This document shows, one piece after another, positions 39,261-44,560 of a stretch of 64,000 nt of DNA. This DNA is from Deltaproteobacteria bacterium (GTDB lineage Bacteria; Myxococcota_A; Polyangia; Polyangiales; Houyiibacteriaceae), in the NCBI GenBank assembly GCA_017644045.1, contig JAEPMI010000011.1, positions 58,029-122,028 on the forward strand. Reading direction: 5' to 3'. Each line of letters opens with the position of its first letter. Within the stretch, counting starts at the first letter, position 1. Under the pieces are notes generated by a model. It saw nothing but the letters and a program-made list of their open reading frames with translations, did no database searches and was not told the DNA's origin. The position numbers and the translations under genes were made by a program.

Positions 39261-40454
39261 TCACCCCTTCGAGCGAATCACTTCGAGCGGCTCCGCGTGG
39301 ACGTAGCCCGCGAATCGGCCCCAATAGCGAGCCGTCGAGCGCACGAGATCGTCCGCGAGGTACGGTCGCTCCGCCTGACTCTCGTGACACCGGATGAGGT
39401 CCATCTTGGCTTCCACCAGGTCGCCGATGTCGACGAAGTGTGACGGGTTGAAGTCGGTGGTGGTCGACGGCGCCTGATAGCAGAAGACGTTGGGGACCCC
39501 CCGAGCCGCGACGAGAGTCGCTCGATGCACCGCGCGGTGGTCTTGATGCATGTCGTGCAGGCTGTGGGTGTAGACGGTGGTCGCCTTCGAATCGCGGATC
39601 GCCTTCTCGATCAACGCGATGGTCTCGTGACCATCACTGACCGCGGTGTCGGGGAGCTCGCCCATTTGGAGCACGGCCCGGAGTCGGCGCGCCGCGGCCT
39701 GAGCCTCGTCGGCTCGACGGAGCGCCGTCCCTCCAGAGCCACCCCCGGTGCACGTCAGGATCGTGATTTGGTGGCCGGCCCGGCGGTGGCGTTCGAGAAT
39801 GCCGCCGATCCCGATCTCGACGTCGTCCGGGTGCGCTCCGATGGCGAGAATGGACTCGGTCTCCACCGGCTTCAGGAGGTCGTCGAGCCGTGAGAGCAGC
39901 TTCCTCTGAGTCAGTGGCTTGGGGAGGAACTCGTCGACCTTGGAGCGAAGCGCTTCCACGGCGAGCCCGAGGTCGCCCTTCGCGGTGACGATGATGCAGG
40001 GACGGCGCGGCCACTGACTCTTGCTGCGCTTGGCGACGTCGAGTCCCGAACCGTCCGGTAGCTCGAGGTCGCAGAGGACCGCGTCGTAGTCGGGAGAGCC
40101 GACCTGCTCGAGGGCGGCGTGTCGGGAGGAGACGAGCGTGACCGACTTGCCGGAGCGCTCGAGCCAGCGCGTGACGATGGCCGCCTGATCCATGTCGTCC
40201 TCGACGAGGAGGACGCGGTGGCCCGAGGGGTACACCGACGGCAAGCCGAGCTTCACCGGAAACTGACTCTCCGAGAGGATCAGCGTCGGGTGGTCGTCCG
40301 CAGGTGAGCCGCTGCCACTCCCCTGCATCGGTCGCGCAGGAGGACGGGAGGTGGGCGTCTCGTCACTCTTCGGTCGAGAGGCGACGGGAGATGCAGGGAG
40401 CGGCTTGGCGACACCGCGCGCGATCTGATAGCGGCCGGGGCTTCCGTCGGGCAT
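39261..40454 (-). CDS. Response-regulator receiver fused to a PIG-L/LmbE-family N-acetylglucosaminyl deacetylase domain
   Basis: REC domain: RVLLVEDDMDQAAIV...AVLCDLELPDGSG...FLPKP. PIG-L domain: ILAIGAHPDDVEIGIGG...HQDH. A Pro/Ser-rich leader lies at the N-terminus. ATG 40454 was chosen. Confidence 0.75.
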   Translation of the reverse strand: MPDGSPGRYQIARGVAKPLPASPVASRPKSDETPTSRPPARPMQGSGSGSPADDHPTLILSESQFPVKLGLPSVYPSGHRVLLVEDDMDQAAIVTRWLERSGKSVTLVSSRHAALEQVGSPDYDAVLCDLELPDGSGLDVAKRSKSQWPRRPCIIVTAKGDLGLAVEALRSKVDEFLPKPLTQRKLLSRLDDLLKPVETESILAIGAHPDDVEIGIGGILERHRRAGHQITILTCTGGGSGGTALRRADEAQAAARRLRAVLQMGELPDTAVSDGHETIALIEKAIRDSKATTVYTHSLHDMHQDHRAVHRATLVAARGVPNVFCYQAPSTTTDFNPSHFVDIGDLVEAKMDLIRCHESQAERPYLADDLVRSTARYWGRFAGYVHAEPLEVIRSKG

Positions 40455-40528
40455 GGCTGGGGATAGAGCAAGAGCCGTGCCCACCCAAGTGCGTGAGGGG
40501 TCGGGTGAGCAGCCCCAGAACGGAACGC

Positions 40529-42730: not shown

Positions 42731-42742
42731 GCGGTCGCGTCC

Positions 42743-44560
42743 TCACTCCACCGTGACGGACTTGGCGAGGTTGCGGGGCCGATCGACGTCGTTGCCCGCG
42801 GCCGTGGCCGCGTGGTGCGCGATGAGCTGCAAGGCCGTGGCGTACGCGAAGGGCTGCGCGAGCGCCGGCACCTGGGGAATCACCAACGCATCGCCGAGCT
42901 TCAGCGCCCGGCCGATGCCGTCGGCGTCGGTCAGGATGAAGGGTGCGGCACCGCGAGCGGCGGCTTCCTGGACGTTGGAGAGCGACTTCTCGAAGAGTGC
43001 ATCGTGTGGTGCGATCGCGATGACGGGTGTGCCTTCTTCGATCAGCGCGAGCGGGCCATGCTTGAGCTCGCCGGCGGCGAAGCCTTCGGCGTGAACGTAG
43101 GCGATCTCCTTGAGCTTGAGGGCCCCTTCCATCGCGAGCGGGAAGCTCGGACCGCGGCCGACGAAGATCGCCCGTGGCTGGCTCGCCAGACTCTCGGCGT
43201 AGGCCTGCAGGCGGGCGGAGCACGCGATGGTCAGGATGACCGCTTGCGGAATGGTGTGGAGCACCTCGTTGATGAGGCTCTGGACCTCGTCGTCCGCGAT
43301 CCGGCCGCGCAACCGCCCGAGCTCGATCGCCGAGCAGAGCAGGGCGAAGAGCTGGGCCGTGAACGCCTTCGTCGAGGCCACGCCACGCTCCGTTCCCGCC
43401 AAGGTGCCGATGACGAACGAGGCCTCGCGCGCCATGGCGCTCTCTTCGACGTTCACGATCGCGAGCGAACGCATGCCGACGGACTCGACCAGTCGTAGCG
43501 CGGCCAAGGTGTCGGCGGTCTCGCCCGACTGGGAGACGAAGATGGCGCCGTGCCGGTCGCTGAGCGCGGGGTTCCGGTAGCGGAGCTCGCTGGCGAGGTC
43601 GACCCGGCATGGCATGCCCGCGATCTCTTCGAACCAGTAGCGAGCCAGGAGGCACGCGTAGTAGGAGGTGCCGCAGGCGCTGAGGATCAGCTGGTCCTTG
43701 TCCGCCAAGGTCTCGACGGGCAGCCGAATGGCACCGGTCGCACCGTCGACGTAGGCCGCGAGCTGCCGCTCGAGCACCTCGGGCTGCTCGTGGATCTCCT
43801 TCATCATGAAGCTCGGGAACTCGCCCATCCCGGCCTCCGCCTCGCTCTCGCGGACGGAGCGGGTGGGTCGCTCGACCTCTCGGTCCCGTTCGTCGAGAAC
43901 CCGGATGTGGCCCCGCCGAAGCTCCGCCCGGTCGCCGCACTCGAGCACCTGGATGGCATCCACGAAGGGCGCGATGGCCGAGCCATCGGAGGCGAGGTAG
44001 GCCGCTCCGGGCTCCTGGGCCACCACGAGCGGGCCGTTTCGGCAGGTGGCGTAGAGGGCGTCGGGGTCGCTCGACACGATCATCCCGATGGCGAAGCTCC
44101 CCTCGAGCCGGGTCGAGACCTCGCGCAGCGCCATCATCGGGTCCCCGCAGCTCTCGAGGGCGAGGTCGAGGAGGTGGGCGACGACCTCGGTGTCGGTCTG
44201 GCTCTCGAACGTGCGACCGATCGCGAGCAGCTCGTCCCGCAGCTCGTCGTGGTTCTCGATGATGCCGTTGTGGACGACGCCCACGGCGCCGACCACGTGC
44301 GGGTGCGCGTTCGCTTCGCTGGGCGCGCCGTGAGTCGCCCACCGGGTGTGCGCGATGCCGGCGTGGCCAGGCAGGGGCACCTGGTCGACCAGGCTTCGTA
44401 GCGCGGACACCGGCCCGACCGCTCGGCGTCGCCGGATCTGGCCCCCGTCGACCGTGGCCACGCCCGCGCTGTCGTACCCACGGTACTCGAGGCGCTGAAT
44501 GCCCGAGACCAGGTCGCTGGCGACCGGGTGTCCGTTGATCATGCCCACGATTCCACACAT
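42743..44560 (-). CDS. glmS: Glutamine--fructose-6-phosphate aminotransferase
   Basis: The N-terminal nucleophile is MCGIVG. GIAHTRWATHG is present, followed by two SIS domains. The C-terminus is ...NLAKSVTVE. Confidence 0.95.
   Translation of the reverse strand: MCGIVGMINGHPVASDLVSGIQRLEYRGYDSAGVATVDGGQIRRRRAVGPVSALRSLVDQVPLPGHAGIAHTRWATHGAPSEANAHPHVVGAVGVVHNGIIENHDELRDELLAIGRTFESQTDTEVVAHLLDLALESCGDPMMALREVSTRLEGSFAIGMIVSSDPDALYATCRNGPLVVAQEPGAAYLASDGSAIAPFVDAIQVLECGDRAELRRGHIRVLDERDREVERPTRSVRESEAEAGMGEFPSFMMKEIHEQPEVLERQLAAYVDGATGAIRLPVETLADKDQLILSACGTSYYACLLARYWFEEIAGMPCRVDLASELRYRNPALSDRHGAIFVSQSGETADTLAALRLVESVGMRSLAIVNVEESAMAREASFVIGTLAGTERGVASTKAFTAQLFALLCSAIELGRLRGRIADDEVQSLINEVLHTIPQAVILTIACSARLQAYAESLASQPRAIFVGRGPSFPLAMEGALKLKEIAYVHAEGFAAGELKHGPLALIEEGTPVIAIAPHDALFEKSLSNVQEAAARGAAPFILTDADGIGRALKLGDALVIPQVPALAQPFAYATALQLIAHHAATAAGNDVDRPRNLAKSVTVE

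Follow-up and report, generated by a model that had tools for sequence, protein, structure and literature searches.

A predicted receiver-gated PIG-L deacetylase and its probable place in a phosphorelay- and sigma-54-controlled glycan locus of the Myxococcota

Synthase-dependent exopolysaccharide systems, including those for cellulose, poly-N-acetylglucosamine (PNAG), alginate and Pel, are usually described as being under the control of cyclic diguanylate (c-di-GMP). Equally familiar are the response regulators with an enzymatic output, in which a single receiver domain (REC) directly controls a fused catalytic domain: a methylesterase in CheB, GGDEF in PleD and WspR, HD-GYP in RpfG and PglZ in PorX. 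Here we detail a locus that is a variant of both of these known kinds, found in a stretch of 64,000 nt with ~70% guanine plus cytosine (GC) from a Deltaproteobacteria bacterium of the Myxococcota (assembly GCA_017644045.1, contig JAEPMI010000011.1, positions 58,029 to 122,028), which we refer to throughout as the window. It includes a gene for a protein that we call REC-PIG-L, in which a receiver is joined to a PIG-L/LmbE domain, so that the predicted output, unlike that of the response regulators just named, is a sugar deacetylase. We consider it fairly probable that the ~23-kb locus (39261-62456) specifies a synthase-dependent hexosamine surface glycan under phosphorelay and sigma-54 control, of which the interval carrying REC-PIG-L, a hybrid histidine kinase and glmS would be the regulatory and precursor arm. 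The product of the locus is most likely a chemically edited amino-sugar polymer.

The closest biosynthetic counterparts are PgaABCD of Escherichia coli and IcaADBC of the staphylococci. The locus resembles these in its membrane-embedded processive glycosyltransferase of family 2 (GT2), which best matches PgaC/IcaA, in a likely hexosamine product, in a predicted deacetylation of the polymer, and in the TPR partner and small membrane peptide that stand beside the synthase machinery. It departs from them in that its GT2 scores far under the PgaC cut-off, that no CE4 deacetylase of the PgaB/IcaB type (Polysacc_deac_1) was matched among the scanned locus genes of the window, and that the deacetylase is instead a cytoplasmic PIG-L enzyme fused to a receiver. 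Furthermore, its ATP-grasp and PHP proteins are without counterpart in either system, and it possesses a BcsB-like subunit together with sigma-54 and phosphorelay control. With respect to signaling, the nearest precedent is the HnoX/HnoK/HnoB nitric oxide (NO) network of Shewanella oneidensis and Vibrio cholerae, where a sensor-less kinase is paired with an H-NOX protein and a REC-EAL protein serves as an output (PMC8846402). Orthologous operons in two relatives, L002 and L088 (loci are designated here by such numbers), place a sensor-less kinase beside an H-NOX gene, and our locus likewise includes a REC-EAL gene and a presumptive biofilm-matrix output. Unlike that network, the window has no H-NOX gene, its hybrid kinase has two receivers plus an Hpt domain, and its predicted outputs are a glycan-synthesis enzyme and a sigma-54 activator in addition to c-di-GMP turnover.

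The interval at issue holds three genes on the minus strand:

39261..40328, minus strand: REC-PIG-L response regulator/zinc deacetylase, 355 aa, starting at M79 of the longest open reading frame (ORF); assigned from Pfam, codon-position GC, AlphaFold2 and Foldseek
40529..42730, minus strand: sensor-less hybrid histidine kinase, 733 aa, with HisKA (H30), HATPase, a pseudo-receiver, REC (D417), REC (D541) and Hpt (H664); assigned from Pfam and alignment with the L001 and L002 orthologues
42743..44560, minus strand: glmS, glutamine--fructose-6-phosphate aminotransferase, 605 aa, with a GATase and two SIS domains and an N-terminal MCGIVG; assigned from TIGR01135

Both domains of REC-PIG-L exceed their Pfam cut-offs (REC, 80.4 bits; PIG-L, PF02585, 81.3 bits against a gathering cut-off of 28.2), and the motifs DLELPDG, AHPDDVEIG and HQDH are all present, which bears out the fusion of a receiver to an LmbE/PIG-L domain that the initial annotation had read from the DNA. 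In an alignment of 77 diverse family members, and with residues numbered along the 355-aa product, D87, K137, H166, D168, D169, H261, D263 and H264 are invariant. The receiver positions E43/D44, D87, T115 and K137-P138, which provide the acidic pocket, phospho-acceptor, Thr and Lys characteristic of PF00072, are invariant or nearly so. The AHPDDVEIG and HQDH motifs align with H12, D14 and D15 and with H110 and H113 of BC1534 (PDB 2IXD), which are zinc ligands and catalytic residues. In this superfamily AHPDD contributes two zinc ligands, His and Asp, together with the catalytic Asp, and HxDH the catalytic His and a third zinc ligand. The loss of metal-binding residues that had been named as grounds for doubting the enzyme is thus not seen. 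The AlphaFold2 model has a mean predicted local distance difference test score of 91.7. In Foldseek searches, its C-terminal domain matched TT1542 with a target-normalised TM-score of 0.80 and BshB with scores of 0.76-0.77, alongside BC1534 and archaeal diacetylchitobiose deacetylases; PorX was matched through the receiver, and no PDB entry among the matches spanned both REC and PIG-L. With the stand-alone LmbE/PIG-L enzymes (TT1542, 1UAN; BC1534/BcZBP, 2IXD; BshB, 6P2T; the archaeal diacetylchitobiose deacetylases; MshB), the domain shares its Rossmann-like fold, the AHPDD and HxDH motifs and a conserved Arg/Glu after strand 2, and it differs from them in its N-terminal receiver, its sub-cut-off BshB1 score and its context of ATP-grasp, PHP and GT2 genes. 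Collectively, these features support the prediction that REC-PIG-L is a receiver-gated zinc deacetylase of the PIG-L/LmbE type.

The start of REC-PIG-L had initially been set so that only 74 nt separated it from the kinase. The corresponding ATG at 40454 exists, and we rejected it on codon-position GC and on the position of a putative promoter: the values for 40329-40454 are 0.71/0.71/0.69, which has a non-coding look, versus 0.70/0.46/0.85 from the ATG at 40328. An independent gene call (P0001) with an identical 355-aa product also begins at 40328. The true gap is therefore ~200 nt, with the predicted promoter inside it. At its other end the gene meets secA (36096-39257, plus strand), which converges on REC-PIG-L with 3 nt between the two stop codons. 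As to pathway membership, the best NCBIfam model for the PIG-L domain is BshB1 (TIGR04001), at 81.2 bits against a cut-off of 182.5, and Pfam and NCBIfam scans of the locus genes, which did not include a dedicated search, turned up neither a GT4 (BshA/MshA-like) nor a BshC/MshC-like ligase. We rejected a place for REC-PIG-L in bacillithiol or mycothiol synthesis on the BshB1 score and gene context, and the link to low-molecular-weight thiols that had earlier been entertained is unlikely.

REC-PIG-L is a member of a widespread cassette whose other enzymes are a ligase of the ATP-grasp type, a phosphoesterase with a PHP domain and a processive, PgaC-like GT2. When 59 loci encoding the fusion, drawn from several phyla and many of them on incomplete contigs, were surveyed with tblastn, these partners were recovered in 50/59, 45/59 and 43/59 loci, respectively. 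The ATP-grasp (PylC-like), PHP and GT2 (~490 aa) genes likewise recur in gene tables compiled for Myxococcota, Gemmatimonadota and Acidobacteriota loci and for a locus of one Solirubrobacterales-labelled genome. The fusion itself was found in all of the best 120 matches in a collection of 5.8 billion proteins, and at least 582 relatives were confirmed in contigs representing one genome per species, with carriers that include cultured Leifsonia, Microbacterium, Cellulomonas, Blastococcus, Leucobacter, Legionella and Streptomyces. Database names for these matches are generic (e.g., "PIG-L family deacetylase," "response regulator"), and literature searches for REC with PIG-L or LmbE and for the cassette gave no relevant paper. 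The earlier remark that no characterised REC-PIG-L enzyme is known agrees with these searches, and of the accompanying concern that the fusion might be common and already assigned a function, the first half proved correct and the second found no support in them. In the lineage of the window the cassette is split over a divergent promoter region, with the ATP-grasp, PHP and GT2 genes lying across it from REC-PIG-L. The cassette also takes in, here, glmS and genes for BcsB-like, TPR and small membrane proteins, a sigma-54 activator of the NtrC type, three hybrid kinases and a REC-EAL protein. The BcsB-like and TPR partners were missing from the Actinomycetota loci of the census.

The arrangement of putative regulatory sites, for which we used the sigma-54 consensus TGGCAC-N5-TTGC with GG-N10-GC fixed, would tie together the two halves of this split cassette:

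40468..40482, minus strand: sigma-54 -24/-12 motif GGGCACGGCTCTTGC before REC-PIG-L, with one mismatch, in the gap between kinase and REC-PIG-L
40512..40548, unstranded: putative upstream activator sites, TCCCGAATCGGGA and another half-site, which extend into the 3' end of the kinase gene
44613..44627, minus strand: sigma-54 motif TGGCCCACGAGTTGC, with one mismatch, 67 nt upstream of the glmS ATG
44668..44703, unstranded: putative upstream activator sites shared by the divergent promoters of glmS and PHP and lying halfway between them, consisting of inverted repeat TTCCGTATCGGGA and another site
44744..44758, plus strand: sigma-54 motif TGGTACGGGACGTGC before the PHP operon, with two mismatches, 14 nt upstream of the PHP ATG, in a block conserved when three intergenic regions are aligned

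Of the four one-mismatch matches to the sigma-54 consensus in the window, one falls in each of the two intergenic regions concerned, both on the minus strand. A TTCCG-N3-CGGAA inverted repeat precedes each promoter (glmS, REC-PIG-L and the PHP operon) by 54-75 nt in the window and by 33-76 nt in relatives, against a background of 0.04-0.09 per 120 nt, and the repeat at 44689-44703 could serve both divergent promoters because it lies ~60 nt from both -24 elements. Neither the sigma-54 consensus (up to two mismatches) nor the repeat (up to three) is enriched over the window as a whole; since these counts are not above chance, the case for a regulon rests on position, co-occurrence and conservation. 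Conservation is apparent in alignments of the intergenic regions with relatives at 70% and 53% protein identity, which retain just these promoter blocks. A sigma-54 motif lies upstream of REC-PIG-L in eight relatives (L001, L002, L003, where it is perfect, L005, L018, L084, L086 and L088; background, 0.087 per 360 nt), glmS-directed motifs occur in L001, L002 and L018, and the PHP-operon motif is found in L001 and L002. The Acidobacteriota locus L005 (sites at 9861, minus; 9958, plus; 14127, minus) has the repeat ahead of its ATP-grasp promoter as well as those of REC-PIG-L and PHP. Its PHP operon combines two repeats with a sigma-54 motif that matches TGGCAC-N5-TTGC perfectly, and the other two promoters are laid out alike, which argues for a cis-regulatory code conserved across phyla. 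Additionally, local alignment of the regions upstream of REC-PIG-L and glmS scores 45 versus 20 +/- 3.7 for shuffled sequences, none of 500 shuffles reaching the observed value. REC-PIG-L is thus predicted to have its own sigma-54 promoter and not to be simply the last gene of a glmS transcript, and the NtrC-type activator of the locus, described below, is inferred to bind TTCCG-N3-CGGAA.

The glmS assignment is secure by the usual marks of the family, namely an equivalog score of 676.9 bits against the TIGR01135 cut-off of 418, an N-terminal catalytic Cys and two SIS domains. Its stop at 42743 and the kinase GTG at 42730, 12 nt downstream, stand as initially described, as does the divergent intergenic region at 44561-44772, which ends at the PHP gene ATG (44773). 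Given the 12-nt gap and the lack of a terminator between them, glmS and the kinase probably form one transcript; a sequence scan found neither intrinsic terminators nor sigma-70 promoter-like sites between glmS, kinase and REC-PIG-L. The gene was detected in 5/59 loci of the census, and L086 and L088, examined later, also carry it. In the window and five other Myxococcota loci (L001, L002, L018, L086 and L088) it is divergent from PHP, in the Acidobacteriota locus L005 it closes a PHP-GT2-TPR operon, and in the Mycobacteriales locus L048 it is divergent from a kinase and REC-PIG-L operon, such that its adjacency to the cassette recurs in three phyla and three different arrangements. We conclude that glmS is an accessory of some lineages and not a core partner of the fusion. 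Because the sigma-54 motif and TTCCG-N3-CGGAA arrangement is kept in relatives that include Acidobacteriota, glmS is nonetheless predicted to belong to the same regulon as the cassette, and its adjacency and common promoter architecture support a co-regulated supply of glucosamine 6-phosphate (GlcN-6-P) and a hexosamine product. The initial annotation had proposed a phosphorylation-gated deacetylase of N-acetylglucosamine (GlcNAc) conjugates genetically tied to amino-sugar supply. Its receiver and intact active site, and the tie to glmS and the polysaccharide locus, withstood this analysis; glmS as a regular companion of the fusion did not, and REC-PIG-L appears to be transcribed from a promoter of its own.

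How the kinase upstream of REC-PIG-L might receive a signal is suggested by its relatives. Its Pfam domains are HisKA (22-85), HATPase_c (131-239), REC (369-483), a second REC (~493-606) and Hpt (643-712), while residues ~250-362 are receiver-like with the acidic pocket missing; Pfam found no PAS or GAF domain. The earlier picture of a kinase without a PAS or GAF input domain, with one degenerate and two clear receivers and a C-terminal Hpt, is confirmed by Pfam and alignment. That the protein is also without a transmembrane (TM) segment comes from reading its sequence and 29-residue N-terminus, the hydropathy scan having covered the other locus proteins. The open frame can be extended upstream of GTG 42730 by only four codons, which makes an N-terminal sensor domain impossible. 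In the orthologous operons of L002 (a 9-Mb genome) and L088 (a metagenome-assembled genome of the Myxococcota), the genes run glmS, HNOB, kinase, REC-PIG-L and overlap or nearly abut at their junctions, and the H-NOX gene occupies the exact position of the 12-nt glmS-kinase gap of the window. The census places H-NOX in 2/59 fused loci, and in Marinicella (L008) an HNOB gene adjoins REC-PIG-L divergently. The L002 kinase retains a coiled-coil N-terminal extension that the window and L001 kinases do not have. Like kinases of the HnoK/HahK type, the window kinase has a core without a sensor of its own, and the adjacent H-NOX gene of that type is absent from the window. Since an H-NOX gene sits at the equivalent position in two orthologous operons, the window kinase is predicted to be an orthologue of the H-NOX-operon kinases and an HnoK-type partner kinase, and the partner gene of those operons would explain why it has no sensor.

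Because the only Hpt domain of the locus belongs to it, the sensor-less kinase may act as a relay hub; the two PAS hybrid kinases encoded on the plus strand have no Hpt, and hybrid kinases with Hpt domains, or stand-alone Hpt proteins, recur at cassette loci elsewhere. Among the eight receiver-like domains of the window, those of REC-PIG-L and the NtrC-type activator are mutual best matches (89 bits versus 44-69 for others), a similarity that fits a common phosphodonor.

Beyond the divergent promoter, the plus strand encodes the remainder of the putative system in the following order:

44773..45519, plus strand: PHP-domain phosphoesterase, a cassette member (Pfam PHP; no TM segment)
45509..46780, plus strand: TPR protein (Pfam TPR; weak similarity to the TPR regions of PgaA, BcsC and PrsT)
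46777..48612, plus strand: BcsB-like protein bearing a signal sequence at its N-terminus and a TM anchor at its C-terminus (PF03170, 23.8 bits; hydropathy scan)
48609..48749, plus strand: 46-aa peptide with a single TM segment, its start overlapping the BcsB-like stop codon; 76% identical in L001
49351..49692, plus strand: 113-aa soluble protein with no known domain (tblastn matches in L001, L002, L003, L007, L018 and L084), one of two small proteins at this point in the order
49517..51040, plus strand: NtrC-type sigma-54 activator response regulator (Pfam REC, AAA+ with GAFTGA, HTH_8), with a likely start near 49706
50979..52145, plus strand: ATP-grasp ligase, a cassette member (Pfam PylC-like_N, ATP-grasp_3, ATPgrasp_Ter), with a start probably near 51130-51180
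52147..53601, plus strand: processive membrane GT2 synthase, a cassette member (QRLRW, 1+4 TM segments; best match PgaC_IcaA)
53602..55601, plus strand: ~660-aa protein with a hydrophobic signal-like N-terminus, directly after GT2 (no Pfam domain)
55675-58185 and 58163-61147, plus strand: two PAS-HisKA-HATPase-REC hybrid kinases without Hpt (Pfam)
61176..62456, plus strand: REC-EAL response regulator (Pfam; EAL motifs EALVR, EVTE, DDLGAG and EGIET intact)

The GT2 has the DDAS, DAD, AED and QRLRW motifs and the C-terminal TM bundle expected of a processive synthase. The BcsB-like protein is conserved in L001, L002, L003, L018, L084 and L086, and counterparts of the 46-aa peptide occur as 44-54-aa genes at the equivalent position in L002, L086 and L087 and as a 45-aa gene beside GT2 in L004. 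The peptide may be a small synthase subunit of the PgaD or BcsF kind. The hydropathy scan found no convincing TM segments in PIG-L, ATP-grasp or PHP, the one above-threshold window in ATP-grasp (residues 68-86) falling inside its PylC-like N-terminal domain, and on this basis all three are expected to act in the cytoplasm. The activator has the receiver, AAA+ and Fis-type helix-turn-helix domains of the NtrC family, with GAFTGA at residue 279 of the ORF translation. The 113-aa protein is conserved alongside the cassette in Myxococcota and Gemmatimonadota loci and in a single one from Thermoleophilia. Of the fetched loci, only L055 has a relative of the ~660-aa protein, and a weak one; the protein might act on the product as a glycan hydrolase or lyase. 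Within the longest REC-EAL ORF, at its 5' end, the sequence TGGCACGCGTCCTGC (61214-61228, plus strand) differs from the sigma-54 consensus at one position and stands ~90 nt ahead of the receiver domain. REC-EAL may have a later start and its own sigma-54 promoter; we saw no clear repeat upstream of this motif. The Gemmatimonadota locus L003 (4353-6050, 15746-18001) encodes, in addition, a protein with PAS, GGDEF and EAL domains, an O-acyltransferase (Acyl_transf_3) and a CE4 enzyme (Polysacc_deac_1), which suggests that some lineages have an input from c-di-GMP and carry out further tailoring outside the cytoplasm.

From these parts, we propose a model in which a His-Asp-His-Asp phosphorelay ends at the Hpt of the sensor-less kinase, which would be controlled by the H-NOX protein in the orthologous operons and, in the window, may be fed through its Hpt by the two PAS hybrid kinases that have none of their own. 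The Hpt would phosphorylate two sister receivers, that of the NtrC-type activator and that of REC-PIG-L. The activator would then turn on the three promoters, raising GlcN-6-P through GlmS together with the pathway enzymes, while phosphorylation would switch the zinc deacetylase of REC-PIG-L directly. PIG-L enzymes usually serve to deacetylate a substrate that is afterwards re-acylated, as in the synthesis of mycothiol, teicoplanin and aminoglycosides. By the same logic, REC-PIG-L would act in the cytoplasm on a precursor that contains GlcNAc and expose its 2-amino group, the ATP-grasp ligase would re-acylate this amine, and the PHP enzyme would take off a phosphate. GT2, the BcsB-like protein and the 46-aa peptide would polymerise and export the product, and REC-EAL would contribute a c-di-GMP branch, as in the HnoX/HnoK/HnoB network.

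Several observations weigh against this model. The GT2 finds its best model in PgaC/IcaA (TIGR03937) at 131.8 bits, far under the cut-off of 422.3, and neither ATP-grasp nor PHP has a close characterised homologue in the PDB, where the one close relative of ATP-grasp, 2PN1, is itself uncharacterised and PHP matched nothing nearer than the distant PHP domains of PolX. Most cassette loci are without glmS. A tblastn search of the window with two H-NOX queries, at E values up to 10, returned only noise, with no H-NOX gene or remnant. Public reads offered a single candidate run of undefined type with short, low-depth contigs, in which those spanning the junctions were uninformative as to co-transcription. 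Moreover, a cytoplasmic trio of deacetylase, ligase and phosphatase is about equally compatible with a route to a small molecule or glycolipid and with the editing of a polymer donor.

This last point gives rise to two chemical alternatives. The cassette could build a membrane glycolipid, with GT2 placing GlcNAc on a lipid, PIG-L deacetylating it at the cytoplasmic face as in glycosylphosphatidylinositol synthesis, and ATP-grasp aminoacylating the product. The founding PIG-L enzyme does act on GlcNAc-phosphatidylinositol at that face, GT2 weakly matches Glyco_transf_21 and the HpnI/HpnB lipid glycosyltransferase models, and the Actinomycetota loci manage without BcsB-like and TPR partners; we nevertheless think this route unlikely in view of the QRLRW motif and the PgaC- and cellulose-synthase-like best matches of GT2, the BcsB-like partner in Gram-negative loci, and a co-regulation of glmS that suggests bulk demand for hexosamine. 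It is similarly improbable that GT2, PHP, PIG-L and ATP-grasp together make a soluble N-aminoacyl-glucosamine conjugate by the logic of mycothiol or bacillithiol, with no polymer at all. Here, the attraction is that the four enzyme classes parallel MshA, MshA2, MshB and MshC one to one, implying the same succession of glycosyl transfer, dephosphorylation, PIG-L deacetylation and ATP-dependent ligation to the freed amine, and that the three tailoring enzymes are all cytoplasmic and BshB1 is the best NCBIfam match of the PIG-L domain. However, that match (81 bits) is far under 182.5, and three of the four steps would use other folds in the cassette (GT2 for GT4, a PHP phosphatase, and ATP-grasp for the Cys ligase). 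The transferase, moreover, is a membrane-embedded GT2 with five TM segments and the QxxRW motif typical of processive synthases rather than a soluble GT4, and the export-like BcsB-like, TPR and signal-sequence proteins are co-conserved with it in Gram-negative loci.

Two further alternatives concern individual components. A quite improbable one is that glmS is a housekeeping gene that came to lie next to the locus by chance in this clade, with no functional tie to the kinase or deacetylase. Its presence in a minority of fused loci (5/59, plus L086 and L088) would be accounted for in this way, as would a standard GlmS equivalog whose cassette-linked counterparts in other phyla are no closer to it than is usual between phyla (378-439 bits). 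Chance adjacency sits poorly, however, with the sigma-54 motif and upstream repeat that the glmS promoter region has in common with those of REC-PIG-L and PHP, with the retention of the glmS-directed motif in L001, L002 and L018, and with a linkage that recurs in three phyla and three arrangements. Very little credence can be given to a PIG-L domain that is merely a ligand-binding or scaffold output in a protein acting purely as a regulator, as H166, D168, D169, H261, D263 and H264 are invariant in the 77 members and align with the zinc and catalytic residues of BC1534.

What is new in the window, then, is a split and extended Myxococcota cassette, a sigma-54 and upstream-repeat code that includes glmS, a corrected start for REC-PIG-L, and the predicted orthology of its kinase to those of H-NOX operons. 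The phosphorelay-controlled amino-sugar polymer that we favor makes predictions of its own from the window: a cis-regulatory code of TTCCG-N3-CGGAA and sigma-54 promoters common to glmS and the cassette, an H-NOX link in the orthologous operons, and a branched relay running from one Hpt to both an activator and an enzyme. If true, a sugar-tailoring enzyme built as a response regulator would represent a direct phosphorylation gate on glycan chemistry. Only tentatively would we go further and regard REC-PIG-L as an undescribed class of enzyme-output response regulator, in which His-Asp signaling gates the committed N-deacetylation of a widespread, cytoplasmically edited hexosamine glycan. In marine Myxococcota, by the same tentative account, this class would be embedded in an NO- or PAS-responsive sigma-54 regulon with an inducible GlmS, such that one phosphorelay governs precursor supply, enzyme synthesis and enzyme activity. 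Hundreds of species carry the cassette, among them cultivable members of Leifsonia, Microbacterium, Cellulomonas, Blastococcus and Legionella; our literature searches gave no paper on it, and its product may be an unrecognised component of the envelope or matrix.

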